DNA of 19,876 nt from Promethearchaeota archaeon (lineage in GTDB: Archaea > Asgardarchaeota > Odinarchaeia > Odinarchaeales > JBHLKK01): NCBI GenBank assembly GCA_048939465.1, contig JBHLPL010000015.1, positions 1 through 19,876 on the forward strand, written 5' to 3'. Positions 3,674 to 19,876 of this stretch are shown here, piece by piece; position 1 is the stretch's first letter; each line of letters begins with the position of its first letter. The notes under the pieces were generated by a model. The model searched no databases, was not told where the DNA came from, and saw nothing but the letters and a program-made list of their open reading frames with translations. Made by a program: the position numbers and the translations under genes.

Positions 3674-3709
3674 TTGATATGATCTGTTTTATCATCTGAC
3701 TTTAGAGGC

Positions 3710-3768: not shown

Positions 3769-5022
3769 ATGTTCGGAGACCACACATCAAAATCCATCAT
3801 TGGCATAAAAACCAAAGAACTGCGGGGAAAGAAGATAGCTCTATGTATAACTGGAAGCGTGGCAGCCATACAGTGTTCCATCATTGCGAGGGAACTTATG
3901 AGGTGCGGAGCAGAGGTTTTTGGCGTCATGTCATTTAATGCCAGAAAGCTAATTACTCCTGAGCTTATTGAATGGGCGACCGGCAATCCGGTTGTCACTG
4001 AGCTCACGGGAAAAGTGGAGCATGTCACACTGGCCGGAGATCACCCAGACAGATGTGATCTGATTCTTGTTGCACCAGCTACTGCAAATACAATAAGCAA
4101 AATAGCCCATGCCATTGACGACACCCCAGTTACAACAGTTGTTTCTACAGCGATAGGCAGTGGAATTCCGATAGTGCTGGTTCCAGCGATGCACGAAAGC
4201 CTATATCACCATCCAACAGTTCGAGATAACATTATGAGACTTGAAGGACTCGGTATCGAATTCGTTGGTCCAAGGTTTGAAGAAGGAAAGGCAAAAATTG
4301 CCCATGTGGACGATATCGTAGAACGAGTCTTAAATCGCTTGATATACAGGAAAGATATGACTGGTCGTCAAGTCTTGGTCACAGCAGGACCTACGAGAGA
4401 ATTCATTGATGGTATCCGATTTCTAAGCAACCCGAGTTCTGGCAAGATGGGCATCGAGCTAGCAAAAGTAGCCAAAGCGAGGGGGGCAAAGGTCTGTTTG
4501 GTATATGGCTCTGTCAATATTGAGTTACCAAGTGGAATCAAACTGATTCATGTCGAAAGCACGAAGGAGATGGTTAGTGCTGTGATTTCTGAACTGAAGA
4601 AAAGCAAGTACGACATCATGGTTCATCCTGCCGCCGTTTCAGATTATGGACCGGAAGAAAGGGTCAATAAAAAACTCCCTTCGAACATGAAAAGCCTAAC
4701 GATCAAATTAAAGCCTCTTCCCAAGATTGTCTGCGAAGCCAGACAAACGTCGACAGACATGTTTCTTGTCGGATTTAAAGCCGAATACGACGTGACTGAA
4801 AAGGAATTGATTGAGAATGCGTATGAGCGTCTGAAGGAAACCGGCATGAACCTCATAGTTGCAAATGACGTAGCTAAGGACAATATTGGATTTGCTACTG
4901 AAACCAATGAAGTATATATCATTGATCCTGACAGAAATGTGACTCATGTTCCGCTTTCGCACAAGAAAGAGGTGGCATCAAAGATATTTGACATAATACT
5001 TGCCAAATCAGAAAGAAAATAA
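3769..5022 (+). CDS. coaBC: Bifunctional phosphopantothenoylcysteine decarboxylase / phosphopantothenate--cysteine ligase
   Basis: GSVAA, APATANTISKIAHAIDD, PAMHESLY, VTAGPTREFIDGIRFLSNPSSGKMG, AAVSDY, GFKAE, ANDV. Confidence 0.96.
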   Translation: MFGDHTSKSIIGIKTKELRGKKIALCITGSVAAIQCSIIARELMRCGAEVFGVMSFNARKLITPELIEWATGNPVVTELTGKVEHVTLAGDHPDRCDLILVAPATANTISKIAHAIDDTPVTTVVSTAIGSGIPIVLVPAMHESLYHHPTVRDNIMRLEGLGIEFVGPRFEEGKAKIAHVDDIVERVLNRLIYRKDMTGRQVLVTAGPTREFIDGIRFLSNPSSGKMGIELAKVAKARGAKVCLVYGSVNIELPSGIKLIHVESTKEMVSAVISELKKSKYDIMVHPAAVSDYGPEERVNKKLPSNMKSLTIKLKPLPKIVCEARQTSTDMFLVGFKAEYDVTEKELIENAYERLKETGMNLIVANDVAKDNIGFATETNEVYIIDPDRNVTHVPLSHKKEVASKIFDIILAKSERK

Positions 5023-5085
5023 CATGCTCGTTTTTGCCTTTCGCATCTTGATCGCTCCCTCAGCAGTAAACGAAAAAGACAAGCC

Positions 5086-5091
5086 TTTTTT
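5086..5091 (+). terminator. Possible oligo-T terminator after coaBC
   Basis: T6 run about 65 nt after the coaBC stop; archaeal intrinsic terminators are T tracts. Weak on its own. Confidence 0.3.
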
Positions 5092-5245
5092 CCCCAAAAA
5101 ATCAGTGGTCTCTTGCACGTCTGTCCACGGTCTGTAACGGAAGTAGTTTGCATTGGAGATGGAGAAGGAGGATTGAATTCGATCCGTTTAGAACTATTTT
5201 TAAATCTTATGATGAGTATGTTATGTATGAGTGTGGGACCAAATA

Positions 5246-5938
5246 ATGAAGCTCTATGACCTGTATATAATATACTACGATGGGAGAAGCATTATGCATA
5301 AGGAATTCGCAACATCTTCCTTGGATGAAACGATTACGAGTGGGTTCTTGAGTGCACTGAATGACTTCGCCAAGGAAGCTTTGCCTTCTAAGGAACCTCT
5401 GAGAGTCATAGAAAAAGGGAATATTAAAGTTGTATTCGTGAGTAGTCCCCACGTTAGAATGGCCCTCATATGCGAAACAAAGAAGGATTCCGAGGTCGAA
5501 TATGCCAAAACCCAGATGGAGTATCTACTCGAAAGAATAAGAGGGAAATATTCAAAATACCTGGCTGAGTGGGATGGGAATCTTAGAAGCTTCAGAGGAT
5601 TGAAGAAACTTATTGAGAATGTTTTCAAAGAGCTGGTTAAAGTTGCAGCTTCACCGTCTTATGAAGAATTGCTAAAAAGTGCAAATAGATATTATTATGC
5701 GGTAGAGGGAACAGGAAGAATCATATATGATGTTTTCTACAGGAATTCGAGAGGCTTCACGAAATTCCTGAATCGAAGAGCTATTCCTCCTGCCAAAGTT
5801 GACAGTCTCATTCAAGTCCTCATAGATAGAAAGATGAAAAGTAGAAAATTGGCAGAACAATTCGACCTGGATCTTCAAGATACGGTTGCATTACTGAGAA
5901 ATCTGAAGCTTAGAGGGGTCGTAAGTGTCTGGAAATGA
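5246..5938 (+). CDS. Longin-like domain protein with C-terminal winged helix
   Basis: N-terminal LYIIYYDGRS...TSGFLSALNDFAKE...LRVIEKGNIKV...KYSKYLAEWDG..F matches the Asgard longin-like pattern; C-terminal SRKLAEQFDLDLQDTVALLRNLKLRGVV is wHTH-like. TATA-like TTTTTAAAT at 5197-5205 favours ATG 5246 over GTG 5231. Confidence 0.75.
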   Translation: MKLYDLYIIYYDGRSIMHKEFATSSLDETITSGFLSALNDFAKEALPSKEPLRVIEKGNIKVVFVSSPHVRMALICETKKDSEVEYAKTQMEYLLERIRGKYSKYLAEWDGNLRSFRGLKKLIENVFKELVKVAASPSYEELLKSANRYYYAVEGTGRIIYDVFYRNSRGFTKFLNRRAIPPAKVDSLIQVLIDRKMKSRKLAEQFDLDLQDTVALLRNLKLRGVVSVWK

Positions 5939-7040
5939 GTTAGACATCATAGCTCTGGCCAAAGGATTGAATGCGTACGTGCGACGTTTAATTACACAGG
6001 TCGCAATAAGCGAAGGACTGTCCGATATCCTTAAGAGTCCAAGAAGCATTATTGAGCTGGCAGATATCCAAGGCTATAAGAACCTCAGACTGCTCAGGAA
6101 ACTCGTTCTCTCGCTTTCAAGTATCGGGGTCTTCAAGCAAGTTGGAGATGAGTTCGAATGGCTAGGCAGTGACACAAGAATTACCCCTGAAGAGAAAATG
6201 GTCGAGCAATATTGCGAGCCATGGCTTCTTCTTCTTCAGCTTTATGCGAAGGCATTTCCTAGGATCCTCAGAGGCGGTCCACCGAGTCCCACTCAAGATG
6301 TCGGAATATGTGACAGCATCAATGCAACGGAGCTCTATGAGTTCGTGTGGCGTGAAGCAATGAGGCTTAGTGAATTGCCCAAAGAGTCTGTAGTTCTTGA
6401 CGTAGGGTGCAGAACCGGGTGGAGTACCATATATCTGCTAGAAGAGCTTAAACCCAAGACTCTTGTTGCAATTGATAGCTCGGAGTCCTATATAGACGTA
6501 GCAATAGATAACGTCTCCGAGTTCAAACCTGAACAGGATAATGTGAGCTTTTTGATTCATGATTTCAGGAAAGAACTCTCTCCGGTTAAACTGGGCCTTG
6601 AGGAAAGTATAGGGGTTGTATTTGTATCTTATCTCTTTCACTGGTACGAGAAAAAGGATATTCTAAAGATACTCATCAATTTGAGAAAAATACTCGATAA
6701 GGGAGCTGTTGTATTCTTTCTGCAACCAGTTGTGGCCTACAGGGACCAACCCCGGCACTTCGAGGTCTTGCTGCATTCAGAAAAGGGATATAAAAACTAT
6801 CCAGAATACTCTGATTTTGCGAATATGATAGTTTCGGCAGGTTTCAGATTTCCTAGAAGAGAATATAACTTGTTTCTTTGGACCTACGTATGGGATGAGG
6901 AAGAGGAGGAGATCGGTAAGCTTACTTCAGACGCGCCGCGATTTTGCTCCAAATGCGGGAGAGAACTGCCGCTTTCTGCAATGTTTTGTGTCAACTGTGG
7001 CAACATTCTAAAATACAGGCTTGCTTATCCTCTCATATAG
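5925..7040 (+). CDS. Class I SAM-dependent methyltransferase with N-terminal wHTH and C-terminal zinc ribbon
   Basis: N-terminal PRSIIELA...LRKLVLSLSSIGVF (wHTH as in O-methyltransferases), motif I VLDVGCRTG, VAIDSS, LFHW, C-terminal CSKCG-x8-FCVNCG; GTG start overlaps the upstream gene by 14 nt. Confidence 0.8.
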   Translation: MSGNELDIIALAKGLNAYVRRLITQVAISEGLSDILKSPRSIIELADIQGYKNLRLLRKLVLSLSSIGVFKQVGDEFEWLGSDTRITPEEKMVEQYCEPWLLLLQLYAKAFPRILRGGPPSPTQDVGICDSINATELYEFVWREAMRLSELPKESVVLDVGCRTGWSTIYLLEELKPKTLVAIDSSESYIDVAIDNVSEFKPEQDNVSFLIHDFRKELSPVKLGLEESIGVVFVSYLFHWYEKKDILKILINLRKILDKGAVVFFLQPVVAYRDQPRHFEVLLHSEKGYKNYPEYSDFANMIVSAGFRFPRREYNLFLWTYVWDEEEEEIGKLTSDAPRFCSKCGRELPLSAMFCVNCGNILKYRLAYPLI

Positions 7041-7052
7041 ATAGATCTTGAC

Positions 7053-7113
7053 GGGGTTTTTACGCTACCCCATATTCTTTGCTGGAAGCTTGACCTAGAT
7101 AGGTTCTAAGCTT
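7053..7113. terminator. Two small hairpins between convergent genes
   Basis: GGGGT(7053-57)/ACCCC(7067-71) and AAGCTT-ACCTA/TAGGT-AAGCTT (7086-7113) in the 82-nt gap between converging stops. Confidence 0.3.
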
Positions 7114-7122
7114 ATTCCACGC

Positions 7123-8505
7123 TCAAGTTAACACGCTCGGTATTGGATCCTTGCGATGTTCCTCTTTACGCATTTTTGAGTGAGTAGATCCAGAGAAGAC
7201 TCGGCGTTTTCCAAAAGGTTTCAGCAATGAAACAAACTTCGAGAGATAAAGCAGATAACCCTTCGCGGTTTTGAAGTCAATATTATCTTGATTGCGTGGT
7301 GCTCGTTCTGCTATTTCAGTCCACTTTTTGATAACCTCGTCATGAGGAAGTGTCAGGCCACTTCTTCTGAGCTTGTTGACCAACTGAGAAAAAGAAAGAG
7401 TATCAGAGGAGTTGTTGGTTAGTTCAAAGTGCTTAGCTTTCAGCGCAGAATGCAGGGCTGATTGAGCCTCAACAAGGTATGAGGCGTAAGCTCCATTCTC
7501 AAAATGGGACCTAGCTTCCCCCAAACTCCTGCTGAAAGCTTTTAAATGGGCATTCAAGTCTCTTGCTGTTGAGTACGAGGGTAAATCTGAAAGAGATTTC
7601 TCAGTTGACCCAGAATATAATGAATTACCTGGATCGACAAGTGACGGGACCAAGACTTCATCTGATTCTATTGGCAAAATGAAACGATTCTCAAGAGCTT
7701 TAGCCAGTTTGATTCCTCCTATGATTATTGAAGATATGGCTCCCATAAGAACAGCGAGACTTAGAATCATAAAACTTGGCCAGTATTCAGTTAGCGGGAA
7801 TATGTTCGTCCTGAGAATAGTATCTAAGGCCGCGAACCCCCAAAAACAGCCCAGTATTGCGAACATCTTTTGCGAGATGGATAGAGGCCAGCCCAAATGA
7901 TTGATGTTGGCTGTAGATAGTTTTTCAACCACCCTTCTTACCGATTCTTTCTCCTTATCTAGGAATTTCCCAAGCTTCCTTATTGGCACTACGTATATAT
8001 TGTATCTCCTTTGGTCTCCAAAAGCTAGAAGCCACTCTCTCGAAGAATCATTAAGGTTCAGAGAATCGGCAGTTTCATCGTCTGTAAGCACAATCGGAGT
8101 CACCCGGAAGGTCGCCACATTACCATTGATGCGATGCACAGCTGCCCTAAGCATCGGTAGGGCCATCTTTCTCATTTCCATTTTCGGAAATAGCTTTCCT
8201 AGGGTCTCTAAGATGTGCAAATTGCCACCATCTTTGCTTTTTTTAAGAGCATCAAACTCGTTCTTTACTTCGTTCATAAAAGCTGCGCAATGCTGATCCA
8301 AAACATCAGTAACTTGATTCTCACCTTGAGGCGATTGGGAGAGGTTGAATCTGCTAATTAAGAGTAGGTCCACAAGAACAGCGGTCTTTTCAGAATGATT
8401 GAAGCATTTGCCAGCTATCCACTGGGTGATAATCCTCGGAGCACATGCTACTCTGTAATTCCTATCCTCCAATATCGTCTTTAGTTGGTCTGAGACACTC
8501 TTCAT
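7123..8505 (-). CDS. Membrane protein: uncharacterised N-terminal alpha/beta region, 2 TM helices, C-terminal HEPN-like domain
   Basis: Hydrophobic segments MFAILGCFWGFAALDTIL and FMILSLAVLMGAISSIIIGGI; ARSHFENGAYASYLVEAQSALHSALKA resembles the first two HEPN helices; no RxxxxH. Confidence 0.6.
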   Translation of the reverse strand: MKSVSDQLKTILEDRNYRVACAPRIITQWIAGKCFNHSEKTAVLVDLLLISRFNLSQSPQGENQVTDVLDQHCAAFMNEVKNEFDALKKSKDGGNLHILETLGKLFPKMEMRKMALPMLRAAVHRINGNVATFRVTPIVLTDDETADSLNLNDSSREWLLAFGDQRRYNIYVVPIRKLGKFLDKEKESVRRVVEKLSTANINHLGWPLSISQKMFAILGCFWGFAALDTILRTNIFPLTEYWPSFMILSLAVLMGAISSIIIGGIKLAKALENRFILPIESDEVLVPSLVDPGNSLYSGSTEKSLSDLPSYSTARDLNAHLKAFSRSLGEARSHFENGAYASYLVEAQSALHSALKAKHFELTNNSSDTLSFSQLVNKLRRSGLTLPHDEVIKKWTEIAERAPRNQDNIDFKTAKGYLLYLSKFVSLLKPFGKRRVFSGSTHSKMRKEEHRKDPIPSVLT

Positions 8506-8521
8506 TTTCTGACACCAAAGT

Positions 8522-8602
8522 GATGGGTTGGGCTGAGGAAAAATCAGTTAGGGATACTTAGACCTGGGAGCTTAGAGGACTTCCTCAGCCCTAACCTCTA
8601 TC
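8522..8602. other. Long inverted repeat / structured element in the 5' region of the 7123-8505 gene
   Basis: Perfect 11-bp IR GGGCTGAGGAA (8530-8540) / TTCCTCAGCCC (8581-8591), extended by GGTT/AACC across a 1-nt bulge; 40-nt interior. Confidence 0.7.
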
Positions 8603-8631
8603 TCGCCTTGGTTTGGAAGAATTAAGCGATC

Positions 8632-8647
8632 CATTTAAAGACTTTTC
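8632..8647 (-). promoter_or_regulatory. BRE/TATA promoter for the 7123-8505 gene (GAAAAGTC-TTTAAATG on minus)
   Basis: Canonical BRE + TATA about 125 nt upstream of ATG 8505; predicted TSS near 8606-8610. Confidence 0.6.
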
Positions 8648-8918
8648 TTGTGGGGCTTGATTAAAGGCAAACTCAGGTTATTTTTTGAAGAATAGCGTTC
8701 TACTCCTATTTTCTTGTGACTATTCCTAGGAAAGTGCTTTAGAAGTCAAGAAATCTTCATTGGCTCCCCATCTATCAAATGAAATGCAATTTCTCCTTAT
8801 ATTTCCACAATGAATCAATTCTTTTTTCATTATGATCCTGGCAAAAACGCGACAATTTACACCCAAAATATATAGAAGTTCCGACAATAAAAAATACGAA
8901 TCTCCCGTCAAGGAGAAA

Positions 8919-10052
8919 ATGACGATGATTAGAAGGAGCACCCTCAGAAGATCAAAAAGACTAACTGAAAAAGATGTTTTGATAGCAACACTGCTTAAGG
9001 AAAATCCAGACGCAAGTATACGAAAGCTTTCAAGCTTGTCAAGATTCAGCAAGGATGCGGTCTTTAGAAGCATAAAGAAAATGAGCATGGTTATGGATAT
9101 GAAGAGGAAGGCGTTAATAAACTACCCGATAGTAGGCCTCAAACCTGCATTTGTGTTTGCAATATCAAACATCGAAAAAGCAGACATTGCTCTAGCGTCC
9201 CTAAGAATGCCTTACCTAAACCACATCTTTACATTGATGGGGGGGGAAACATTTGCATTACTCGCTTTCTATGCGTTGCCTAATCCTGCAGTTCTCAAAC
9301 CCATTCTAGGATCCTACAGGAGCTGGAGATGGCACACAAAGCAGTACATCATGGAGTGCTCATCTGTAGGATCGGATATCTCATTTCAGTACTACTCTGT
9401 AAAGGCAGGGGAATGGAATGTCACGTGGCCTCTATGGGGCTTTTTTTTGAAGGAGATCTTGCTGAAGAAAGGATTTGCTGAAGTGCAAAGACTCACACGA
9501 CACAAGTACAAGTACCCAGAGGAGCAGCCGGAGATTGATCTTTTGCAGTTGGAGATTCTCAAAGAGCTTTGGTGTGATTCTCAAATTGATGTTCCTAATC
9601 TTGTAGAGAAGCACAGAACAAGTTACGCTACAATTAGAATGAAACAGCAAATCCTAAGGGACAAAGGTGCCTATTGGCTACATTTGTCTATTGATCCGAT
9701 AAAATCTAAGTTATTTGACAGAATAGTCCTAATAGTTGACGCGAAGGAAGAAGACGTGCTGGATGGTGTTCAAATCGCTCTTCAGGCTTTGCCATACTCG
9801 ATAAGTTACAGGGTTACCGGAGACTTAGACGGTATAGTAGCCATGCTCTCCCTGCCCTCTCCGGGAATTTCAAGGGTTTTTCATATTCTCTCAGAACATT
9901 TGTGGGATATGGTTGACAATTACTGGATCTTCCCCATAATTCGACATCTCGAAGTTAGAAACCCGTTTCCACTGAAGCTCTTTGATGCAGAAAAGCAAGA
10001 GTGGTTCTTCCCCCCCAAGATTGAGAATAGGAAATATGTATACTATGAATAG
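8919..10052 (+). CDS. Transcriptional regulator with two tandem Lrp/AsnC-like HTH + RAM-like repeats
   Basis: HTH1 LTEKDVLIATLLKENPDASIRKLSSLSRFSKDAVFRSIKKM; HTH2 IDLLQLEILKELWCDSQIDVPNLVEKHRTSYATIRMKQQILRDKG; each followed by a beta-alpha-beta segment. Start moved to ATG 8919 (AGGAG at 8911-8915, AATATATAG near 8867-8875). Confidence 0.7.
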   Translation: MTMIRRSTLRRSKRLTEKDVLIATLLKENPDASIRKLSSLSRFSKDAVFRSIKKMSMVMDMKRKALINYPIVGLKPAFVFAISNIEKADIALASLRMPYLNHIFTLMGGETFALLAFYALPNPAVLKPILGSYRSWRWHTKQYIMECSSVGSDISFQYYSVKAGEWNVTWPLWGFFLKEILLKKGFAEVQRLTRHKYKYPEEQPEIDLLQLEILKELWCDSQIDVPNLVEKHRTSYATIRMKQQILRDKGAYWLHLSIDPIKSKLFDRIVLIVDAKEEDVLDGVQIALQALPYSISYRVTGDLDGIVAMLSLPSPGISRVFHILSEHLWDMVDNYWIFPIIRHLEVRNPFPLKLFDAEKQEWFFPPKIENRKYVYYE

Positions 10053-10206
10053 CAAGCTAAGGAATATGGGTTGTCTGAGCTGGTTGACGGCGATTCTCGG
10101 TAAAATGTCTCTGGATGGGGCAGTTTCCTATGCATCAAAGATATCCCACAGAGTTGTTTTCATTTACGTTGGATGACTGAATTTAGCCAACCTGCTTTAG
10201 TGAATA

Positions 10207-10221
10207 CAAATAATTTATAAG
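10207..10221 (+). promoter_or_regulatory. TATA promoter for hppA (TTTATAAG)
   Basis: TTTATAAG at 10214-10221 with an A-rich upstream segment, about 60 nt before the start. Confidence 0.5.
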
Positions 10222-10283
10222 GAGGTTATCATTTATCGGGAAATGCGGCTAATCCCGCATATATGGGTATGAAATACTAGGAT

Positions 10284-12587
10284 GTGGGTCAAATAACTCT
10301 AGAATGGGCTCTTCTGTGGTTTATTCTGCTCGTATCCGTAGGTGGTTTGGTCTATGCAGTCCTGTTGGTGAGAGAAGTCCTCCGGCATGAGGAAGGGACC
10401 CCAGCCATGGTAAAGATTGCTAGAGCGATTCGCGGCGGTGCCAATAGCTATCTACGAAGACAATTTAGGTCAGTATTTCCAATTGTATCCATTTTGACCA
10501 TCGTTTTGTTCTTTACAGCGTACCTAGCAACGACACCTCTTTACACGGCGGGATCGCCAGAGGCTCTTTTTTACTCAATTGGCAGAGCTGGAGCCTTTGT
10601 AATGGGATCTGTCTTCTCAGCAACCGTGGGCTTCATAGGAATGAATATGTCGACAAGAGGAAACGTGAGAGTAGCAAATGCTGCGAGAAGAGATTTCGGA
10701 GAAGCATTGAAAATTGGCTACAGAACAGGAACGATAACTGGTATGTTAACGGACGGGTTAGGCCTGCTAGGGGGAGTAATCATTTTCATGATCTATCAGC
10801 AGTTTGCCTTTGAGGTCTTGCTCGGCTATGGATTCGGTGGTTCGCTAATTGCGTTGTTTATGAGGATTGGAGGGGGTATCTATACCAAGGCTGCCGATGT
10901 AGGAGCAGACATGGTGGGAAAAGTTGAAAAAGGAATACCAGAGGATGATCCTAGGAATCCTGCAGTAGTAGCCGATCTAGTGGGCGACAATGTGGGTGAC
11001 TGCGCAGGTATGGCTGCTGACATTTTTGAGTCATATGAAGTTACAATTGTATCCGCCATGATTCTAGGATACTTGGCCCTAGGGTTTGCAGGAGTGATAT
11101 TCCCATTAATTGTCAGGGCCATTGGAGTCATTTCATCAATAATTGGTACGTACTTCGTCAAAGCAAGGGGAAAAATGAAGGATGCCCTGAAGTCTATTAA
11201 AACAGGGTTTAATACTTCGGCTGCAATATCGATTGTTGGCTTCTTCATTGGAGCAATCCTTTACATGGGTCTTAGCAATCCTCCTGGAATTCCGGCGGGT
11301 GTGGATACGGTCATTCTGTCGATAAGAATGGCAGTAGCTACGTTAACGGGCGTGATTCTGGCAATCTCGATCAATGAACTGACGGATCGATTTACTTCAA
11401 TCAAGCATTCTGCAGTTGAAGGTATAGCTAGATCAACCAATACCGGTGCTGCGACTACTATTCTAAGAGGATTGGCAGTAGGTTATGAGTCCAGCGTTTG
11501 GAATGTTATTGTAATTGCCGCATCGATACTTGTATCCGCAATCATCTTCTTTGGATTAAGTCTTGTTTTCGTATTCTACGGTGTCGCACTCTGTGGCATT
11601 GGCATGCTTACACTAACGGGTAACAACATCTCAATGGACGCCTTTGGTCCCATATCGGACAACGCCCAAGGAATAGGTGAGATGGCGGATCTTGAAGACG
11701 ACGCCAGAAAAATACTAGAGCAGCTTGACTCAGTCGGCAATACCACAAAAGCAATAACGAAAGGCGTAGCAATAGCTTCAGCGGTCATTGCAGCAGTAGC
11801 CTTATTTTGGTCATACGTGGAAGACACACTGATCGGAGTAATAGATGTGGCAAATGTCTATGTTTTCATAGGTTTGCTGATCGGCGGAGCCATACCGCTC
11901 CTGTTTAGCTCTATTTCAATCCGAGCAGTAGATCGAGCAGCCTCCAAAATCATACTGGAAGTACGAAGGCAATTCAATCAGATACCTGGACTTATGGAGG
12001 GAAAAGCCGATCCAGACTATAACACATCGGTTTCAATATGCGTTTCAGCAGCCCAAAAGGAACTTATCGGACTAGGTGTAATCGCTATCTTGAGTCCTAT
12101 AGTCGTGGGTTACCTGTTGGGCGTAGCGGCCCTCGGAGGTTTCCTTGCAGGAGTGATACTTGTAGGTCAGCTGCTTGCGGTGTTTATGGCCATAGCAGGT
12201 GGAGCATGGGACAATTCCAAGAAGGCCATTGAAGCAGGTCTATACGGTGGTAAGGGATCCGAAGCCCACAAAGCAAGTGTCATAGGAGACACAGTCGGAG
12301 ACCCCTTGAAAGATACAGCCGGACCAGCAATCAATCCAATGATAAAGGTGATGAATCTTATCTCTTTGCTGGTAGCTCCGCTAATCCTGTATGGATTAAT
12401 CGAATTCGATGTGGCCGATTTAGGTTCGATAGTTATGGCAGCCGCAATCGGGTTCACACTCATGGCAGTAATTGGCGTAGCAGTCTGGTATAGCAAGAGA
12501 GAATCAAAAGAAACTTTGGAAATCATAGATCAACTTGCCAAGGAACAAGCTGGCCAAAAGGATAAACCTAAGGCAGGTCAGAAATAG
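10284..12587 (+). CDS. hppA: Membrane-bound H+-translocating pyrophosphatase, K+-independent type
   Basis: GGGIYTKAADVGADMVGKVE, EDDPRNPAVVADLVGDNVGDCAGMAADIFESY, DAFGPISDNAQGIGEM, GGAWDNSKK, GDTVGDPLKDTAGPAINPMIK; GNTTKAITKG has Lys at the K+-dependence site. Confidence 0.96.
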   Translation: MGQITLEWALLWFILLVSVGGLVYAVLLVREVLRHEEGTPAMVKIARAIRGGANSYLRRQFRSVFPIVSILTIVLFFTAYLATTPLYTAGSPEALFYSIGRAGAFVMGSVFSATVGFIGMNMSTRGNVRVANAARRDFGEALKIGYRTGTITGMLTDGLGLLGGVIIFMIYQQFAFEVLLGYGFGGSLIALFMRIGGGIYTKAADVGADMVGKVEKGIPEDDPRNPAVVADLVGDNVGDCAGMAADIFESYEVTIVSAMILGYLALGFAGVIFPLIVRAIGVISSIIGTYFVKARGKMKDALKSIKTGFNTSAAISIVGFFIGAILYMGLSNPPGIPAGVDTVILSIRMAVATLTGVILAISINELTDRFTSIKHSAVEGIARSTNTGAATTILRGLAVGYESSVWNVIVIAASILVSAIIFFGLSLVFVFYGVALCGIGMLTLTGNNISMDAFGPISDNAQGIGEMADLEDDARKILEQLDSVGNTTKAITKGVAIASAVIAAVALFWSYVEDTLIGVIDVANVYVFIGLLIGGAIPLLFSSISIRAVDRAASKIILEVRRQFNQIPGLMEGKADPDYNTSVSICVSAAQKELIGLGVIAILSPIVVGYLLGVAALGGFLAGVILVGQLLAVFMAIAGGAWDNSKKAIEAGLYGGKGSEAHKASVIGDTVGDPLKDTAGPAINPMIKVMNLISLLVAPLILYGLIEFDVADLGSIVMAAAIGFTLMAVIGVAVWYSKRESKETLEIIDQLAKEQAGQKDKPKAGQK

Positions 12588-12613
12588 GATAGATGTCGCC
12601 TCGTCATCTTCTC

Positions 12614-12620
12614 TTTTTTT
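12614..12620 (+). terminator. Oligo-T terminator candidate after hppA
   Basis: T7 run in a pyrimidine-rich stretch about 27 nt after the stop. Confidence 0.4.
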
Positions 12621-12686
12621 ATATGCAATACGGATATTCGTATTAGTTAAGGACAATCAAGAATCAGAAACCTATGGCGATGAAGA

Positions 12687-14279
12687 ATGGGTTCTTCAAT
12701 AGTGGGAGTCTTTGATAGAAAGGGTAGAGATGTTTTTGGCAGGATTTTGGGTATGCTTTCCGCTACCAAGCACAGAGGTTCAGAAAATGTCGGGATAGTA
12801 ATTAAGGGGAGAAGTATCTTCGCAACGGGTTTTGGAGAAGTTGACAGAGTTTACGTACCGGGGAATATTGGAATTGGAGTTACCTGGGACGGTACTGAAA
12901 AGAGATTTGGACAAGTCAATGATTCGTTTCGTGGGATTTTGGACGGGGAACTCTATGGGAGCGAGGAACAAAAAAAGAGACCTTCCGGGAGTGTCTTTGA
13001 AACACGATCAGATATTGAGACATTAGTTTACCTTCTCAAAGATGGAATCGTAGAGCAAAATACCAGAAAAGATGCTGAGAGATTTATACGCAAAAAGCTC
13101 AGAACCGTCGACGGGGTATATGCGTTAGCTATTCTTCACGAAGACAAAATATTCATTGCCAGAGACATGATTGGCATCAAGCCCTTGTACATTGTTGAAG
13201 ATGAGGATGTCATCGCCTTCTGTTCCGAGAAAAAGGGATTGTGGTCTATTGGATTGAAGAAGAAGATTCGTCCCCTCGAGCCAGGTAGCTTCGCAGTTGC
13301 CAATAGAAGTGGTCTACACATTTTTCGCAGATCTTGGATGTTTAGGACTCACAAGATTGAACTAGAAGAATCCGTTATGGGACTTGACCTTGTTCTGAGG
13401 AGATCGGTTGAAAAAAGAGTCAAAAATCACGATTCGATTGGGTTGTTGTTTTCCGGTGGTTTAGACAGTGCAGTGCTGGCTGCGATAACCAGGGATCTGG
13501 GAAAGGACCCTTGCCTATATTGCGTTGGCACTAAAAAGGCCAGGGATATAGAGAGAGCCCAGAGAATTGCAGGTATGATTGATTTGACTTTGAGAATAAA
13601 GATACTTCACCTTCACAATATTGAGCGCGATCTGGCCAGAATAGTCCATGGAATTGAAACCAATGATTTCAGAGCCATAGCCATTGGAATTCCTGTATTC
13701 TTTGCCAGTAAGTTAGCCAAGGATGACGGGATGGACACTGTTTTAAGCGGTCAGGGAGCTGATGAGCTCTTTGGCGGCTACGCTCGATATTTACGTATGC
13801 TGGAACAAGAAGGGTATCGCAGACTCCAAAAAGCTCTGGAGCAGGATGTTATGAAGATTGCAGAATTGAATATTCAGCGAGACGATCACGTATCCGTTAT
13901 GAATGGAGTACAGATACAACTGCCGTACCTGGACTGGAGTGTCGTGAAGTTCGGATTGGGAATTCCGATAAGGTTCAAGATACAAAGAGGGGTAGGCGGG
14001 TGGAGCAGGAAGTTTGTTCTCAGAAAATTGGCTGAGAGCATGGATTTACCTAAAGAAGTCTGCTGGGCACCAAAAATCGCCATGCAATATGGCTCTGGAT
14101 CTGAAAAAAGCTTGGGAAGGCTTGCAAAGGCGAGGGGGTTCTCTAAATCCTTTTCCAGGAAACATGGTTACGGTAACAACATCCAATTATTTGTAGATTG
14201 CATCGCCGAGCAAGTCGGAATACCTATGGAATTGTCTCGACTAGATAATATAATAAAGGAATTGGATTTTTCCCTATAG
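12687..14279 (+). CDS. asnB: Asparagine synthetase B-like protein (Ntn GATase-like domain + ATP-pyrophosphatase domain), N-terminal Cys absent
   Basis: HRG, DGELY, SDIE, DGVYA, ARDMIGIKPLY, LFSGGLDS, LSGQGADELFGGYARY, PYLD, PKIAMQYGSG; the N-terminus is MGSSIVG rather than MCGI. Confidence 0.85.
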   Translation: MGSSIVGVFDRKGRDVFGRILGMLSATKHRGSENVGIVIKGRSIFATGFGEVDRVYVPGNIGIGVTWDGTEKRFGQVNDSFRGILDGELYGSEEQKKRPSGSVFETRSDIETLVYLLKDGIVEQNTRKDAERFIRKKLRTVDGVYALAILHEDKIFIARDMIGIKPLYIVEDEDVIAFCSEKKGLWSIGLKKKIRPLEPGSFAVANRSGLHIFRRSWMFRTHKIELEESVMGLDLVLRRSVEKRVKNHDSIGLLFSGGLDSAVLAAITRDLGKDPCLYCVGTKKARDIERAQRIAGMIDLTLRIKILHLHNIERDLARIVHGIETNDFRAIAIGIPVFFASKLAKDDGMDTVLSGQGADELFGGYARYLRMLEQEGYRRLQKALEQDVMKIAELNIQRDDHVSVMNGVQIQLPYLDWSVVKFGLGIPIRFKIQRGVGGWSRKFVLRKLAESMDLPKEVCWAPKIAMQYGSGSEKSLGRLAKARGFSKSFSRKHGYGNNIQLFVDCIAEQVGIPMELSRLDNIIKELDFSL

Positions 14280-14308
14280 GTTAAAATACTGAGGTTGTTA
14301 ACGAACGG

Positions 14309-15148
14309 ATGAATAAGGTTCGGGGAACACCAATGTTGGAAAACATCGGCATTGCCACAATGATGAGGCATGAGTTTAGACTCTCTGACTTTTTGGATGA
14401 GATGAATCGGCTTGAGATTGGGGTTGTTGAGCTTAGGTGCGAGAAGCCTGTTCTTTATCCAAGGGACGTAAACTCCCGAATGCGAATAAATCTGAGACAG
14501 ATTTTGGAGAAGCACTCTATTACAGCCTTGGTTCACGCTCCGTTCCATGATGTGAATCTGGCAAGCCTTAACCCATTGATGAGAAGAGCATCTGTCAAAC
14601 AACTCAGGGAATGCATAGAATTTGCAAATGATGTAGGCTCAAAGCTAGTTGTTGTTCACCCGGGTCAACTTTCCAAGGATTATCCCAAGGTAATGCTAAA
14701 ACAAAGCTGTCTGAATCTCGTAGACAGTATCAACGGTGTGATCCCGTCAGTTGAGAAGTTGGATATGATTCTTGCCTTGGAGAACCAACACGATGGGAGT
14801 GCGTACGGAGTCATTAGTTTTCCCGAAGACTACATTGAGATTATCGAAGAACTTGATTCACCTTATGTTAAGGGGGCCTTTGATGTTGGGCATGCAAACA
14901 CCTTCAAGATCGATCTGGAAGCAGGTTTAATGAAGATATCAGGTTACCTTGTAAACATTCATATACACGACAATGACGGAAAAAGCGATTTGCACTTACC
15001 GGTAGGAGAGGGGATTATCGATTTTAGAGGTGTTTTGAGGACTTTAAAGAATCTGAATTATAAGGGTCCGTTAATCATTGAGAATAAGACTTTTGGAGAT
15101 GCAATAAAAAGCAGAGATAGACTCAGGCTAATCTGGGATAGTTTGTAG
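14309..15148 (+). CDS. Sugar phosphate isomerase/epimerase family (xylose isomerase-like / AP endonuclease 2 TIM barrel)
   Basis: VHAPFHDVNLAS, VVVHPG, LALEN, FDVGHAN, IHIHDNDGKSDLHLPVGEGIIDF, LIIE metal-ligand motifs. Alternative start ATG 14333. Confidence 0.85.
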   Translation: MNKVRGTPMLENIGIATMMRHEFRLSDFLDEMNRLEIGVVELRCEKPVLYPRDVNSRMRINLRQILEKHSITALVHAPFHDVNLASLNPLMRRASVKQLRECIEFANDVGSKLVVVHPGQLSKDYPKVMLKQSCLNLVDSINGVIPSVEKLDMILALENQHDGSAYGVISFPEDYIEIIEELDSPYVKGAFDVGHANTFKIDLEAGLMKISGYLVNIHIHDNDGKSDLHLPVGEGIIDFRGVLRTLKNLNYKGPLIIENKTFGDAIKSRDRLRLIWDSL

Positions 15149-15160
15149 GCTCTTTGAATC

Positions 15161-15733
15161 TCACATCTGCTCAAGCTTATGGCCGCAGTAAGAGCAGTAC
15201 ATCGCATCACTTGATGCGGGAGAACCACAGTATGGACAGAAAGAAGCTGCCTTCCCTTCGGTCTGCAAGAAGTCAGCTGTGCGCTCGGTTTGTATTTCGG
15301 CGAATCTCTTCTGAGTCTCCGGCTCATATTCACGATATTCCTTAGCTTCGTCTCCCAGGATGACTTCCCCTGTTTTTGGGTCAAATGCAGCCACCAGCTT
15401 CCCTTCGGCCCTTAGATCAATCACTGTTCGTTTTACATCTTTCTCCTTCATCTCCAATTCTTCGGCCAGCTCACCAATCGTTGTTCGAGTATGGAGTCTT
15501 AATGTACCCAGAACCGCTTTTCTTGTTTGGTAGCGCTGGTAGATCGTTACGATAGATATAAAGGAGCAGAATATGAATGGAAAATACCACCAGCCCGTTC
15601 CAAAGTCTGTCAGCTGTGCAATGTTCAGTATTCCAACTATCAGGAAGCCAACCGCGACCATTATGAAGAAAAACGGAATTTCTTCGTATTTATACCGCGC
15701 CACTCGAGCATGCCTCCTTTCCAGCCGGTTCAA
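15161..15733 (-). CDS. 2-TM membrane protein with PCI-like winged helix and C-terminal zinc ribbon
   Basis: Two N-terminal hydrophobic helices; TTIGELAEELEMKEKDVKRTVIDLRAEGKLVAAFDPKTGEV is a PCI-type wHTH; CPYCG-x8-YCSYCG at the C-terminus; TTG start. Confidence 0.7.
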   Translation of the reverse strand: MNRLERRHARVARYKYEEIPFFFIMVAVGFLIVGILNIAQLTDFGTGWWYFPFIFCSFISIVTIYQRYQTRKAVLGTLRLHTRTTIGELAEELEMKEKDVKRTVIDLRAEGKLVAAFDPKTGEVILGDEAKEYREYEPETQKRFAEIQTERTADFLQTEGKAASFCPYCGSPASSDAMYCSYCGHKLEQM

Positions 15734-15765
15734 CTAAATCGGCGGAGATTCCTCTTTCAGGATTT

Positions 15766-15793
15766 GGCGAATCAGATATAAGAATTTTTCGCC
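15766..15793 (-). promoter_or_regulatory. TATA box flanked by the inverted repeat GGCGAA-N16-TTCGCC
   Basis: Minus strand reads GGCGAAAAATTCTTATATCTGATTCGCC; the TATA-like CTTATAT lies between the arms, about 40 nt upstream of TTG 15733. Confidence 0.5.
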
Positions 15794-15873
15794 TATCCCC
15801 GCTTCTATTCATCAAAGATACGTATACCATTTTCGACTCAGCGAAGAAACTCATACCGAAGACCGGGATGAAA

Positions 15874-16182
15874 TCACCGCCGACGTCTAAAGGTCTGAAT
15901 CGAAGAGCTTAGTTCTTGAAGCGATAGAGGCGTGCCTTCTTCGCGCTCATCCTTCACAAAAAAGGTTTCTTCACGCCTACATATTGAAAGAATATGAATG
16001 TCTTGGATATAACATTCAACAATATCTCTTGAGACTATGATTGCACCGAAGTCAATACTCCCAAGTTGGTTCAGAATCTCTTCCTTTGTTGCTTTTATCC
16101 ATTGGTTGGTCGTCTCTACAGGGAAGTGAGTACTTCGCATCTCATCCAGAAGAGCGGAAGTTAGTTTTTCTGTATCGCTCAT
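15874..16182 (-). CDS. Small hypothetical protein (~102 aa)
   Basis: Open frame filling the gap between co-oriented genes; ATG 16182 has a GGGAG SD and a TATATATA element at about 16234-16241 upstream, favouring it over TTG 16227. No family recognised. Confidence 0.55.
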   Translation of the reverse strand: MSDTEKLTSALLDEMRSTHFPVETTNQWIKATKEEILNQLGSIDFGAIIVSRDIVECYIQDIHILSICRREETFFVKDEREEGTPLSLQELSSSIQTFRRRR

Positions 16183-16246
16183 TTGATGGATAGCTCTCCC
16201 TATTATTTCGGCATAAAAATCAAACAAAGGAAATATATATAGTTTA

Positions 16247-16951
16247 TTATGTCGTCAGACAAAGTCCGGGTACATATAAGGCAATGTCTATCAGTGATTC
16301 TGATCCGGTTGATGTCTTCTTCCGAACTGTCAGCAGTCTCTCTACTAGTGATTCCATCAGTAATACAAGTGCCCCTATAGCTGTTCCTAACAGGGCTCCA
16401 GCGACTACGTCCGAGGGGTAGTGAACCCCGACATAGACCCTTAAGAAACCTACCATTCCGGCGAATATCAACAGTGGTACTCTGAACCTTTTGCATTTAA
16501 CTGCAATAAAAGTCCAGACAAAGAATGCTAACATGGTGTCTGCAGAGGGGAAGGAGGTCTCACCAAATTGAGGAGCCAGTCTGCGCGTATAGTTCAGGGT
16601 TAGAGAAGGACGTGGACGGCCGAAGTATATCTTGAGACTACTGCCAAAAAGAATCACAAGCCAGAAACTGGCGGCCATTAACAGAACGGCCATCCTTGAT
16701 CCAGCATCTTTTCTTGCGGCAAGCAGAATAGTGCCAATCATGAAGAGAATTAATGCACCATAGCTGGCTATCGGGGGTCCTATTGCATCTAGTACCGGAT
16801 TCGCCAGTACTTGGTTGACTAAGTAAAACAGGCTCTCATCACCTATTAGAAGAATGGTTGCGGCAAGAGAGATAAGAATTAATCCAACGATCAGCAGATA
16901 CCTGTAGTCATCTTTTAGGCTTCTCCCGCCGACAGCCTCGTATTCACCCAA
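16247..16951 (-). CDS. PAP2 family membrane phosphatase (C2 motif PSAD instead of PSGH)
   Basis: C1 KIYFGRPRP, C2 SFPSAD, C3 LRVYVGVHYPSDV, about six hydrophobic segments. Confidence 0.88.
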   Translation of the reverse strand: MGEYEAVGGRSLKDDYRYLLIVGLILISLAATILLIGDESLFYLVNQVLANPVLDAIGPPIASYGALILFMIGTILLAARKDAGSRMAVLLMAASFWLVILFGSSLKIYFGRPRPSLTLNYTRRLAPQFGETSFPSADTMLAFFVWTFIAVKCKRFRVPLLIFAGMVGFLRVYVGVHYPSDVVAGALLGTAIGALVLLMESLVERLLTVRKKTSTGSESLIDIALYVPGLCLTT

Positions 16952-16999
16952 AGACCTTCCCCCAATTAGTACTTTAATATTAGACTTGGTAGTATTTAT

Positions 17000-19246
17000 C
17001 TATTCTGCAAATAGCTGTTTGACCCACTCAGTTTCCTTCTGGAACGGTGAAACATCGCCATCCCAAGAATAGAGCATAGAAGAGTATTTCTCCTCAAAGC
17101 CAGCAACCAAGTTTCTCAGTTTTAGTCTCAGGTCAGAAGTCTCTCGATCCGCCAGAAGTGCGGCAAAAACGTGATTGCCATATTCGATCAAAAGCGTTAT
17201 ATCCCCGTGATCAATCGTTCTAAGAAGATCTCTGCTTCTCGTCGTCTCCTTTACAAATGAAGAGATGGCAGACAGCATTCCCGCCACGAGCGTGGGCTCA
17301 GTCGGAGTCTCTATGAAAGAATAGCTGAACACGTTCCTTCCGTCATGAGTGACAATATACAGACCTTGAAGCGTAGCACGGTAGTACGTGAAGCAGAATT
17401 CTGAGGCTGAAACACTTAAGACCCTATACTTATAAAGATCGTCAAGTATGCCGTAGAGACGCTCAACAGATATCTTAGTCTTGGATAGTAGTTGGCCAAA
17501 CGTGTGGGGATCTTTTCTTATCAGTCCATAAATCCTCTTGGTGTCTTTTTTGGGAGAGAGAAGAGATATGTCTTCTTTCAAGTCGAACAAGAATCCATTC
17601 TTGGCAGTCAGAAGTTCAGGCTCTGATGGATATTCTGGGAATTCCGAGTATATTGCCTCCGTCACCTGAGATTCAGACACTTCTTTTCTGATCTTGAAAG
17701 GGTTGTTCCAATAATGGAATACAAAGGCAAAGAACATAACGGCCAATAATGATTTCAGGACGGTGAATGGAGTGGCAATAATGTCAAATGCGAGAACGCC
17801 TCCTGTTACTATCCTCAGCAAAGCTGTTCTAACTGTAAAAAGTGAAAAGGACGGCGTATCAATTAGGCTAGGAGACGGGGTAATCCAGAAGGTTTCCACA
17901 GGTACTATGAAGAAAGGTATTCCAAGGCCTAGTATTCCAATTGTGAATGTCAGAGAGTAGGAGATTATTACTGTAAGCATGAAACTTGAAGGAAGTATCC
18001 GCGAGAGCCAGCCACTGATGAGTCCCCAAAGAACAAGTCCACTGATGAGGAAGACTGCGCTTAAGATAATGTTTCCGCTCAGAAGAAGTTGCTGACTCAT
18101 TGTCGGTGTGCCGCCGACCAGGAGATAGTTGTTGTAATCTAAGCCCCCTCCTGTTGCAACCGCCCATCCAAATGAGATAAGGTAATTAAATAGGAAACTG
18201 AAACCAAACATAATTACTGAAAACGCAAAGGTGTATGTCAGCTTTTTTGATGTTACTGGCGTCCGAAAATCATCTGCCTTTGGCCTCAAACTCGAGCAGA
18301 TCTTTACTAAGATGAATGATGCTACTGCCTCAAAGAGAGGTAGAAATGCGATGAAAGTAATACTCAGCATGACATAATACGAGACAAAATATAGAACTGT
18401 TGAGGGAAATCCCAAACCGGGAGTAATGGCAGCTTGCTGGATGAAGAGAATAGCGGTTAAGAGAGAGAGAACAGCCCCAACAGCCATTAGATACTGGAAT
18501 GTTGACTCCTTTATCCTTTCTCCAACAGATCTACCCTCATAGGATGTGTTGCTTGAGTATAGTACGTAGACAGCTATCAGAGGGAACGTTAGATAGACCA
18601 GGAAGACCTCTATAAACCAGCCAAGATTGGTTGCAGAAGTAGTTATGGGATTTTCCGTAACACCCACGACGTTAACAATTCCTGTCAAAATATAGAGTGA
18701 AAGTGGAAGTAGCACAATAAGCATCTTTAGGAATTCTTTCTCTTCTCTCCATGTTGCAGTCAGTATTCTTGTTTTCATTCTCTCCACCGGGTTCACTCGA
18801 TAGTCGAAACTGAGTCTGCCAAATTTCTCTCTTATGGATCCGTTCTCTTTTCTGAGCTTGATGATCAAGATTCCTGCGCTAAGTAGAGGCGCACCCACAA
18901 ATATGAAAGGCCACGAGACGGCGATAAATGAAAAGATGTTAGACAGTAGTTCTACAGTCATCAGCAGAAAATACGAAGCCACCTGTCCTATGTCACCGAA
19001 GGATTGAACCTCGAATAGAGTGTGAGTTGTATACGAGGGGTCGTTTTGGAAGAAGAGATAGTCATACAGTATCCCAGGGAGCATATAGTACAAGGCCCAA
19101 AAGAATATGAAGCATAGTAATAGCCGTGCATAGAACTTCCTAAAAGTGGCTCTTGAGCGTAGTAGGATATAGGGAAGAAAGGCAACAACAATTGGTATGC
19201 TGTTAACGAGAAAGGAAAGGATTAGGTCAACCGCCATTTCTACCAA
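17000..19246 (-). CDS. Polytopic membrane protein (~11-12 TM) with cytoplasmic winged helix and C-terminal longin-like domain
   Basis: About 510 aa of repeated hydrophobic helices, then HTFGQLLSKTKISVERLYGILDDLYKYRVL (wHTH), then LYIVTHDGRN...VAGMLSAISSFVKE...LRTIDHGD...EEKYSSMLYSWDGDVSPF (longin-like). Start TTG 19246 or ATG 19237. Confidence 0.75.
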   Translation of the reverse strand: MVEMAVDLILSFLVNSIPIVVAFLPYILLRSRATFRKFYARLLLCFIFFWALYYMLPGILYDYLFFQNDPSYTTHTLFEVQSFGDIGQVASYFLLMTVELLSNIFSFIAVSWPFIFVGAPLLSAGILIIKLRKENGSIREKFGRLSFDYRVNPVERMKTRILTATWREEKEFLKMLIVLLPLSLYILTGIVNVVGVTENPITTSATNLGWFIEVFLVYLTFPLIAVYVLYSSNTSYEGRSVGERIKESTFQYLMAVGAVLSLLTAILFIQQAAITPGLGFPSTVLYFVSYYVMLSITFIAFLPLFEAVASFILVKICSSLRPKADDFRTPVTSKKLTYTFAFSVIMFGFSFLFNYLISFGWAVATGGGLDYNNYLLVGGTPTMSQQLLLSGNIILSAVFLISGLVLWGLISGWLSRILPSSFMLTVIISYSLTFTIGILGLGIPFFIVPVETFWITPSPSLIDTPSFSLFTVRTALLRIVTGGVLAFDIIATPFTVLKSLLAVMFFAFVFHYWNNPFKIRKEVSESQVTEAIYSEFPEYPSEPELLTAKNGFLFDLKEDISLLSPKKDTKRIYGLIRKDPHTFGQLLSKTKISVERLYGILDDLYKYRVLSVSASEFCFTYYRATLQGLYIVTHDGRNVFSYSFIETPTEPTLVAGMLSAISSFVKETTRSRDLLRTIDHGDITLLIEYGNHVFAALLADRETSDLRLKLRNLVAGFEEKYSSMLYSWDGDVSPFQKETEWVKQLFAE

Positions 19247-19302
19247 ATCCCATAATTGGATATAATGAATCTACAGTGATTTAAGTATTTTTGATCTGCT
19301 GA

Positions 19303-19876
19303 TTATGATTCTCGTAGAAGCTTCTGTGGACTTCGAAAATTGAGGACTTCAGGGTTTACAAGATTCGGAGGAGTCTTTCCTCTGAAAAACTTCAGGAGGT
19401 TCTCGGCCACCATAATTGCCATTCTTGTCCTGGTTTCAACACTGGCACTTCCAATATGAGGCACAAGAACTACATTGGCAAGTTTTAGGAGGGGGCTCTT
19501 TTGAGAAATTGGCTCTTCTTCGAATACGTCAAGGGCCGCACCTGCTATCCATCCTTCCTGTAACGCTTTTGCTAATGCGGCCTCGTCAACTATCGGTCCT
19601 CTAGCTGCATTCACAAGGTATGCAGTTCGTTTCATGGCCTTGAATTCACGTTCTCCAAATAGCCTACGGGTTCTTTCTGTTAGCGGCGTATGTATTGTAA
19701 CAAAATCAGATTCTTTAAGAATCCTCTTGAAATCCACAAACTCCAGACCGAATTCGGCCTCAATGTCCATCCTTCTGGTAATATCATAATACAGTACTTT
19801 CATATTGAAGCCAGTAGCCCTGCGAGCAATTGAGGCCCCGATTCTACCCAATCCAACTATCCCTAGAGTCTTTCCG
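19303..19876 (-). CDS. D-isomer-specific 2-hydroxyacid dehydrogenase (glyoxylate reductase-like), 5' part outside the window
   Basis: The frame stays open to the window edge: GKTLGIVGLGRIG (Rossmann), YYD, HTPLT, VNAARGPIVDE, ALDVFEEEP, PHIGSAS with catalytic Arg/Glu/His. Confidence 0.92.
   Translation of the reverse strand, partial: GKTLGIVGLGRIGASIARRATGFNMKVLYYDITRRMDIEAEFGLEFVDFKRILKESDFVTIHTPLTERTRRLFGEREFKAMKRTAYLVNAARGPIVDEAALAKALQEGWIAGAALDVFEEEPISQKSPLLKLANVVLVPHIGSASVETRTRMAIMVAENLLKFFRGKTPPNLVNPEVLNFRSPQKLLRES

Follow-up and report, generated by a model that had tools for sequence, protein, structure and literature searches.

It is an open question how Asgard archaea tie their small GTPases, and the longin and roadblock proteins that partner these, to membranes. 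The eukaryotic lipid anchors, guanine nucleotide dissociation inhibitors and most of the effectors are missing from these organisms, and their GTPase genes rarely lie in operons with regulators (PMC10933270, PMC4917890). The question is raised anew by a gene at 17000-19237 (- strand) in a 19,876-nucleotide (nt) stretch of a Promethearchaeota archaeon of the order Odinarchaeales (GenBank assembly GCA_048939465.1, contig JBHLPL010000015.1, positions 1 to 19,876), which was analysed as a whole and is referred to here as the window. Its 745-residue product is predicted to join a longin domain, of the type that is elsewhere fused to Arf/Rag-like GTPases, to a polytopic membrane domain, with a winged helix-turn-helix (wHTH) module between the two, and so offers a testable candidate for a membrane docking site. 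The explanation that best accounts for the protein as a whole is that it forms a GTPase-docking longin platform on an 11-helix membrane protein, a reading that we hold tentatively and at slightly short of an even chance.

Gene boundaries and integrity

The coding region lies in a single open reading frame at 17000-19246 (- strand), which the list of reading frames starts at a TTG at 19246. Translation most likely begins at the ATG at 19237, because the database copy of the protein (P0002, 745 aa) and every orthologue (MAVD... or MALE...) start at this codon; the gene is accordingly placed at 17000-19237 (745 codons, with a TAG stop at 17000-17002), and the in-frame TTG three codons upstream is probably unused. 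An A/T-rich, TATA-like box (TTCATTATATCC; 19257-19268, - strand) can be read about 20-30 nt upstream of the ATG, and might represent a promoter of the gene's own, directing a leaderless or short-leader mRNA. Among public RNA runs, none bearing the gene was found.

The preliminary description of this DNA had allowed for an assembly chimera. This can be ruled out, because the stretch 16911-19350 is covered, with nine substitutions and no indel or gap, by a 2473-nt contig of an independent mangrove metagenome, and because full-length orthologues are also present in closed single-contig genomes. Contigs from a second study cross both domain junctions. The gene is intact.

The C-terminal longin domain

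The cytoplasmic tail (aa 512-745) was modelled with AlphaFold2 (AF2) from a 28-sequence alignment of the family, which also underlies the conservation values given below; the mean predicted local distance difference test (pLDDT) value was 89.2. The extreme C-terminus (aa 623-745; 17003-17371, - strand) folds in this model as beta-beta-alpha-beta-beta-beta-alpha-alpha. The elements assigned by DSSP, in the numbering of the tail, are strands 112-119 and 124-129, helix 137-155, strands 163-165, 170-175 and 179-185, and helices 190-212 and 219-231. They make up a five-stranded antiparallel sheet with no N-terminal helix and with the C-terminal helices on the side opposite alpha1, as is characteristic of longins.

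An exhaustive structural comparison of the tail with 48,161 PDB chains placed longin domains at the top, with superposition on solved longins over the full domain. The best scores were obtained with CPLANE chain C (7q3d_C, 14.4 over 121 aa, root-mean-square deviation 2.4), VAMP7 (4afi_B, 13.0), Sec22 (3egd_C, 12.7), TRAPP (3cue_A, 12.1) and Mon1-Ccz1 (9rs7_A, 12.1). On the strength of the model, the domain is a genuine longin of the eukaryotic type. The longin-like region delimited beforehand at 17000-17377 (aa 621-745) thus coincides with a longin topology at aa 623-742 in the AF2 model. Its designation as a "eukaryote-like output domain" is correct as regards the fold, but does not describe something new in itself, because the wealth of longins, and of proteins that contain them in many fusions, in Asgard archaea had been described before (Liu et al., bioRxiv 10.1101/2020.10.19.343400; Tran et al. 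2024, PMC10933270).

Sequence comparisons recover this relationship at the margin of detection. No part of the protein matches any Pfam or NCBIfam family at E values up to 10. PF19031 (Intu_longin_1) and PF19036 (Fuz_longin_1) are hit below threshold by three and two of the 28 family members, respectively (best E 0.0056), and the gathering thresholds of these longin families are not reached. Sequence-profile searches of the PDB with the tail, and with a longin-only profile, returned nothing below E 0.15. The domain does not belong to the Roadblock/LC7 family (PF03259): there is no Robl_LC7 match, and the helix under the sheet comes from the C-terminus and not from the N-terminus.

The most conserved stretch of the whole protein is alpha1 with the following loop and beta3 of the longin (aa 648-679, PTLVAGMLSAISSFVKETT...LLRTIDHGD; 17201-17296, - strand), where the frequency of the commonest residue averages 0.80 in alpha1 and 0.86 in beta3, against 0.43-0.48 in alpha2 and alpha3. 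In solved dimers of longin and roadblock domains, the two subunits meet at beta3 and alpha1, and the GTPase binds to the alpha1 face (PMC3747258).

A SNARE-like role in membrane fusion or vesicle formation is hardly credible. The longins of CPLANE, Mon1-Ccz1 and TRAPP match equally well, and the order of the parts is reversed. In the longin SNAREs (VAMP7, Sec22, Ykt6) an N-terminal longin is followed by the SNARE coiled coil and a single C-terminal membrane anchor, whereas here the membrane part is N-terminal and polytopic, the longin comes last, no coiled-coil motif is present, and the chain ends three residues after the last helix.

The linker and the winged helix

The membrane domain is connected to the tail by a poorly conserved cytoplasmic linker (aa 511-563; 17549-17707, - strand), modelled as a beta-hairpin, a short helix and a strand (tail residues 4-42) that lead into the winged helix. 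The wHTH module proper (aa 564-619; 17381-17548, - strand) consists of three helices (tail residues 53-64, 69-76 and 80-92) and a beta wing, in which strand 96-108 continues into the first longin strand (112-119); a three-helix bundle with a hairpin wing is thus predicted. This corresponds closely to the wHTH that had been recognized at 17411-17552 (aa 563-610). We base the identification on this topology, on weak matches to wHTH families and on homology to the modules of other longin-wHTH proteins. The Pfam matches are confined to single family members (HTH_45, E 0.0029; MarR, 0.13; TrmB, 0.14; DprA_WH), a PDB profile search gave 2qlz at E 1.1, and fold searches with the tail are dominated by its longin part. 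The homology is clearer: the target module aligns with the wHTH of free longin-wHTH proteins, which there comes after the longin, with an hhalign probability of 94.4% (E 8.7e-8, 79 columns). Homologous modules thus stand before the longin in the target and behind it in the free proteins, and the wHTH-longin cassette occurs in permuted order.

A winged helix could mean that the protein is a membrane-tethered transcription factor, with the membrane domain controlling the activity or release of the DNA-binding part, as membrane-bound wHTH regulators such as ToxR and CadC are known in bacteria. We regard this as very improbable. The wHTH is the least conserved of the folded parts (0.29-0.39), its third helix (VERLYGILDDLYK) reads as acidic and hydrophobic rather than basic, and the same wHTH accompanies the longin in soluble, KaiC-fused and receptor-tail proteins. 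A role as a protein-protein adaptor would fit this last observation, because the module travels with the longin through all of these contexts.

Other proteins with the same longin

An exhaustive search with the target retrieved 1058 proteins at E <=1e-3, most of which match aa 620-748 only. The same longin forms the C-terminal tail of transporters of the major facilitator superfamily (MFS; P0070, P0073), of many proteins of 350-380 aa with six to seven transmembrane (TM) helices, and of proteins of about 780 aa with the two-TM topology of sensors (TM, large external domain, TM). It is also found between an ectodomain of immunoglobulin (Ig) domains with one TM helix and a KaiC-like ATPase (P0076-78).

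In the 1.96-Mb source genome a longin profile finds 10 copies. Their architectures include the target itself, free longin-wHTH, KaiC-longin-wHTH, longin with a coiled coil, two tails of surface proteins and two longin-GTPase fusions. The latter are Arf/Rag-like proteins of 325 aa (C31, 19784-20761, - strand) and 285 aa (C138, 81431-82318, + strand), whose G domains match Ras, Arf and Gtr1/RagA models and retain the P-loop, DxxGQ and NKxD motifs. The longin of the target is 27% identical to that of the C31 fusion (E 5e-13). Longin-GTPase fusions of this kind form a large, Asgard-wide family, annotated as "ADP-ribosylation factor-like". By sequence, then, the target longin belongs to an expanded subfamily that has repeatedly been joined to membrane proteins and is also fused in cis to small GTPases.

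The closest paralogue of the tail in the source genome, and the second-best match of the longin profile there, is a soluble protein of 235 aa encoded at 5231-5938 (+ strand) of the same contig, in which the longin precedes the wHTH (BLASTP 31% identity over 127 aa, E 3e-19). Odin-type genomes show no synteny between its gene and the target. The combination of a KaiC/RecA-like ATPase with this longin recurs in C10 (20909-22405, + strand; KaiC-longin-wHTH) and in P0076-P0078 and P0085, among them the Ig-TM-longin-KaiC form, which suggests a second, ATPase-linked output for the longin family. The source genome also holds eight Robl_LC7 matches and 18 Ras-family matches in its 1.96 Mb; four Roadblock/LC7 matches (three on the + strand and one on the - strand) are clustered within 1.7 kb at C84 (23293-24957).

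The membrane domain

Residues 1-510 (17708-19237, - strand) comprise about 11 TM helices and an external beta-hairpin. The AF2 model of aa 1-520 has a mean pLDDT of 84.3 and a predicted template modelling score of 0.85, with long helices at 2-28, 30-65, 80-128, 163-191, 205-228, 238-271, 276-317, 330-362, 380-414, 419-436 and 482-508 and the hairpin at 450-475. The three external loops that were counted (66-79, 192-204 and 363-379) contain no lysine or arginine, and the first cytoplasmic loop contains nine. This distribution agrees with 11 TM helices, an external N-terminus and an internal C-terminus, and would therefore place the tail in the cytoplasm. The estimate of 11-12 TM helices in about 510 aa made in the preliminary description is in good agreement with the 11 long helices of the model.

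Conservation is greatest in TM4-TM7 (aa 163-317; 18287-18751, - strand), at 0.53-0.65 per segment compared with 0.29-0.32 in TM8-TM10. Near-invariant positions in this core are W163, E166, P178, G206, W207, E210, Y215, G239, Y287, F295 and E303; K312 is invariant, and E210, E303 and K312 lie within predicted TM helices. The cytoplasmic loop 3 after TM7 (aa 318-329) is a hot spot for insertions, and the pattern suggests that TM1-7 and TM8-11 may be separable modules. Longer versions of the protein, of 860-1130 aa, occur in some Thor and other lineages (orthologues in genomes G057-G078, G135 and G137, and proteins P0034-P0044); some of them carry insertions in loop 3 and others have extended N-termini.

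The external loops are all short and poorly conserved. This disfavours a classical receptor with an extracellular ligand-binding site, and the extracellular cue, one of the two options in the preliminary description, is doubtful. If the protein senses anything, it more likely does so at a site around E210, E303 and K312, either within the membrane or of a transport type.

No relative of the fold was detected, which makes the well-predicted domain of interest by itself. Foldseek against the PDB gave a best, non-significant E value of 1.1, with MprF in the top row, and the best TM-score against the Atlas was 0.25; these searches used the whole 520-residue model as the query, so that a match to a sub-domain remains possible. 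Within this scope, neither a sequence-family nor a fold match was obtained to known transporter, receptor or membrane-enzyme superfamilies (MFS, APC/LeuT, ABC transporter TM domains, G-protein-coupled receptors, GT-C, MprF-like), in agreement with the earlier remark that no transporter motif could be recognized. Comparison of halves and thirds of the domain with hhalign revealed no internal sequence repeat (probability <=0.9%). One family member shows a weak Pfam match to LPG_synthase_TM (E 0.0058); given this single member and the Foldseek value of 1.1, the MprF/LPG_synthase_TM lead was judged to be noise.

The conserved charges in the core are the starting point of the main alternative, in which the protein is a transporter or channel that moves a solute or ion by way of the buried E210, E303 and K312, while the wHTH-longin tail gates or stabilizes it, or binds a metabolite, with no GTPase involved. 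Cytoplasmic regulatory domains act on many carriers. That these charged residues sit inside TM helices of the best-conserved core, that the same longin is the tail of bona fide MFS transporters, and that no GTPase gene is a conserved neighbour all speak for such a carrier. It is doubtful all the same, since no transporter fold or family was recognized and no internal repeat typical of carriers was found in the sequence. The longin is conserved on a protein-protein face and not in a pocket, and its other fusions include GTPases, coiled coils and KaiC-like ATPases.

Distribution of the family

A profile of the membrane domain matches 148 of 400 Asgard genomes, usually once per genome. Most of these matches lie in an uninterrupted frame of 720-790 aa (longer in some lineages), and several come from closed genomes, one of them of 4.32 Mb. 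Full-length relatives reach 82% identity in a metagenome-assembled genome (MAG) labelled as Hodarchaeota and 41-44% in Odinarchaeia, and the labels Promethearchaeota, Thorarchaeota and Hodarchaeales are found on representatives with about 30%. When species genomes were scanned for a pattern built from a nine-sequence alignment, the scan returned only Asgard records, including a MAG labelled Heimdallarchaeota, and an exhaustive search (47 representatives at E below 1e-30) found no member of the family outside the Asgard archaea. Whole Asgard families have no orthologue (e.g. 0 of 31, 0 of 19 and 0 of 12 genomes). The target, an integral membrane protein, is thus conserved, was found in no other group than the Asgard archaea, and is mostly present as a single copy.

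Proposed function

The reading of the tail as a GTPase platform draws its support from five observations: longins of this subfamily occur in one chain with GTPases, they have been fused repeatedly to membrane proteins, conservation peaks at alpha1 and beta3, the family is conserved, and the winged helix is weakly conserved and homologous to the one behind the longin in free paralogues. We envisage that two longins, both from this protein or one of them from another longin protein, would join at the invariant beta3/alpha1 edge. On the cytoplasmic side of the membrane such a pair would expose the conserved face of alpha1 as a platform on which a small GTPase, or a longin-GTPase fusion, would dock. 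The winged helix would serve as a protein-protein adaptor and not as a DNA binder, and recruitment or regulation of the GTPase would be linked to the state of the membrane domain. That state may be the occupancy of, or transport through, an intramembrane site around the conserved E210, E303 and K312 in TM4-TM7. Viewed in this way, the protein could be a single-chain version of the eukaryotic arrangements in which a membrane anchor is combined with a longin or roadblock platform.

A more specific form of the proposal makes the protein a single-chain archaeal transceptor with a new 11-TM fold. A site for a substrate or an ion within the membrane would act through a platform of paired longins, and so control whether Arf/Rag-like GTPases or longin-GTPases are recruited to the membrane, or which nucleotide state they are in. 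We think this unlikely as a whole. If it were true, the protein would represent a prokaryotic forerunner of the coupling in eukaryotes between membrane nutrient sensors, longin/roadblock platforms and small GTPases.

The link between the longin and small GTPases, drawn already in the preliminary description, finds support of an indirect kind. Dimerization and GTPase binding of the target longin are suggested indirectly, by the conservation of alpha1 and beta3, the canonical dimer and GTPase platform, and by the two paralogues in the genome that carry a GTPase in cis. Co-folding of the longin tail (tail residues 96-234) with the C31 fusion (residues 1-295) gave ipSAE interface scores of 0.19/0.18 compared with a mark of 0.32; this was run without controls and is evidence neither way.

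Several points weigh against the GTPase-docking platform. No operon with a GTPase, roadblock or longin gene is conserved across lineages. Longin-GTPase fusions have been named in lineages such as Jord-, Frey- and Hermodarchaeota, and the membrane protein is absent from many of the families sampled; if those lineages overlap, the pairing of the target with longin-GTPases is not obligatory. Longins also have roles that are independent of GTPases, as in SNAREs and the small subunits of adaptors. Finally, sensing or transport by the membrane domain is conjectural, and its extracellular loops are short and variable. The carrier with a cis-regulatory tail is the main rival; the tethered transcription factor, the SNARE-like role and an enzyme linked to the neighbouring PAP2 gene, considered below, are less likely.

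Comparison with known systems

Asgard longin-GTPase fusions are a known class (PMC4917890; 10.1101/2020.10.19.343400; PMC10933270), credited to Klinger et al. 2016 in the citation given by PMC4917890. They share the longin subfamily of the target, in that one profile matches both and the motif SG(F/M)LSA..SF..E...LR.I..G is common to them. Unlike the target they are soluble proteins of about 290-325 aa, and their longin is followed in the same chain by an Arf/Rag-like G domain. A G domain is missing from the target, whose longin is preceded by an 11-TM domain and a winged helix.

The tri-longin Rab guanine nucleotide exchange factors (Fuzzy/Inturned of CPLANE, Mon1/Ccz1 and HPS1/HPS4; PF19036, PF19031) are soluble eukaryotic proteins with three tandem longins that act as obligate heterodimers. 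The first longins of INTU/CCZ1/HPS4 and of FUZ/MON1/HPS1 recur among the sub-threshold sequence matches. The target, however, has a single longin (aa 623-745) in place of three, and its Pfam scores fall below the curated cut-offs. In Ragulator/LAMTOR-Rag with SLC38A9, and in the bacterial MglB-MglA system, the anchor, transporter and platform are separate subunits, and the platform has the roadblock topology with an N-terminal helix; in the target there is one chain with a longin topology, and no similarity to SLC38A9 or to APC-fold carriers was detected.

The unannotated free and receptor-tail longin-wHTH cassettes of Asgard archaea (in the source genome C20, 5231-5938; C10; C78; C142; C39) are homologous to the target in both modules, but have the longin before the wHTH. 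The receptor-tail forms are likewise attached to the membrane, by a single TM helix below a large extracellular domain where the target has a polytopic 11-TM domain.

The preliminary description knew of no characterized protein with this architecture, and this stands: no Pfam or NCBIfam family and no sequence relative in the PDB was found, and no description of a polytopic membrane-wHTH-longin protein was found in the literature. The architecture and the membrane-domain family are absent from the Pfam, NCBIfam, PDB and literature searched, while Asgard longin fusions in general have already been published. What is new here is the 10-copy longin subfamily with its link to GTPases in cis, the map of conservation along the protein, the permuted order of the cassette and the count of genomes that carry the family.

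Genomic neighbourhood

The gene upstream encodes a D-2-hydroxyacid dehydrogenase and ends 65 nt before the start of the target. The end of the window at 19876 abuts a 10-N scaffold gap (contig C20, about 19877-19886) that lies inside this dehydrogenase gene; its division into frames 19303-19851 and 19844-20320 is due to the assembly gap and not to a frameshift.

Downstream, at a distance of 48 nt and on the same strand, is a gene for a membrane phosphatase of the PAP2 superfamily (16247-16951, - strand; Pfam PAP2, E 7.1e-24). The genes for a proton-translocating pyrophosphatase (H+-PPase), asparagine synthase and PAP2 (10284-16951) together with the target are syntenic with two Odin-type genomes (L013 and L014), and a genome search assigns the Odin-type genomes that share the PAP2 neighbour to the same taxonomic order as the source genome. 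The arrangement is missing at eight other Asgard loci (Loki-, Thor- and others); across the Asgard lineages, no conserved neighbour was found except PAP2 in the source genome and the Odin-type lineage.

This proximity is the basis of a further alternative, that the target is a membrane enzyme or lipid-carrier handler working with the adjacent PAP2 protein, for example on polyprenyl-phosphate-linked intermediates, and that the longin serves localization or assembly only. Besides the syntenic PAP2 gene, it could appeal to MprF as the top, non-significant Foldseek row and to the single LPG_synthase_TM match noted above. We consider it quite improbable, and continue to prefer the GTPase-docking platform.

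A gene of about 700 aa combining a mu-homology domain (Adap_comp_sub, E 9.6e-9) with DUF11 is found at L015 (11150-13312, + strand) in genome G143, and also in G141 (C280), G133 (C556), G134 (C1), L018 and L021. In G143, G141, G133 and G134, all of one family, it is the divergent neighbour of the target orthologue, and in a second family the two are 2.4 kb apart. As a linked partner it was set aside: it belongs to a multi-copy family that occurs in 332 of the 400 genomes, and it does not adjoin the target in the others.

Two genes downstream of the target, at 15161-15733 (- strand), a protein of 190 aa has two N-terminal hydrophobic helices, a middle part weakly resembling PCI/winged-helix domains (PCI, E 0.04) and a C-terminal zinc ribbon (Zn_Ribbon_1, E 1.8e-7), and looks like a small membrane-anchored wHTH/zinc-ribbon protein.

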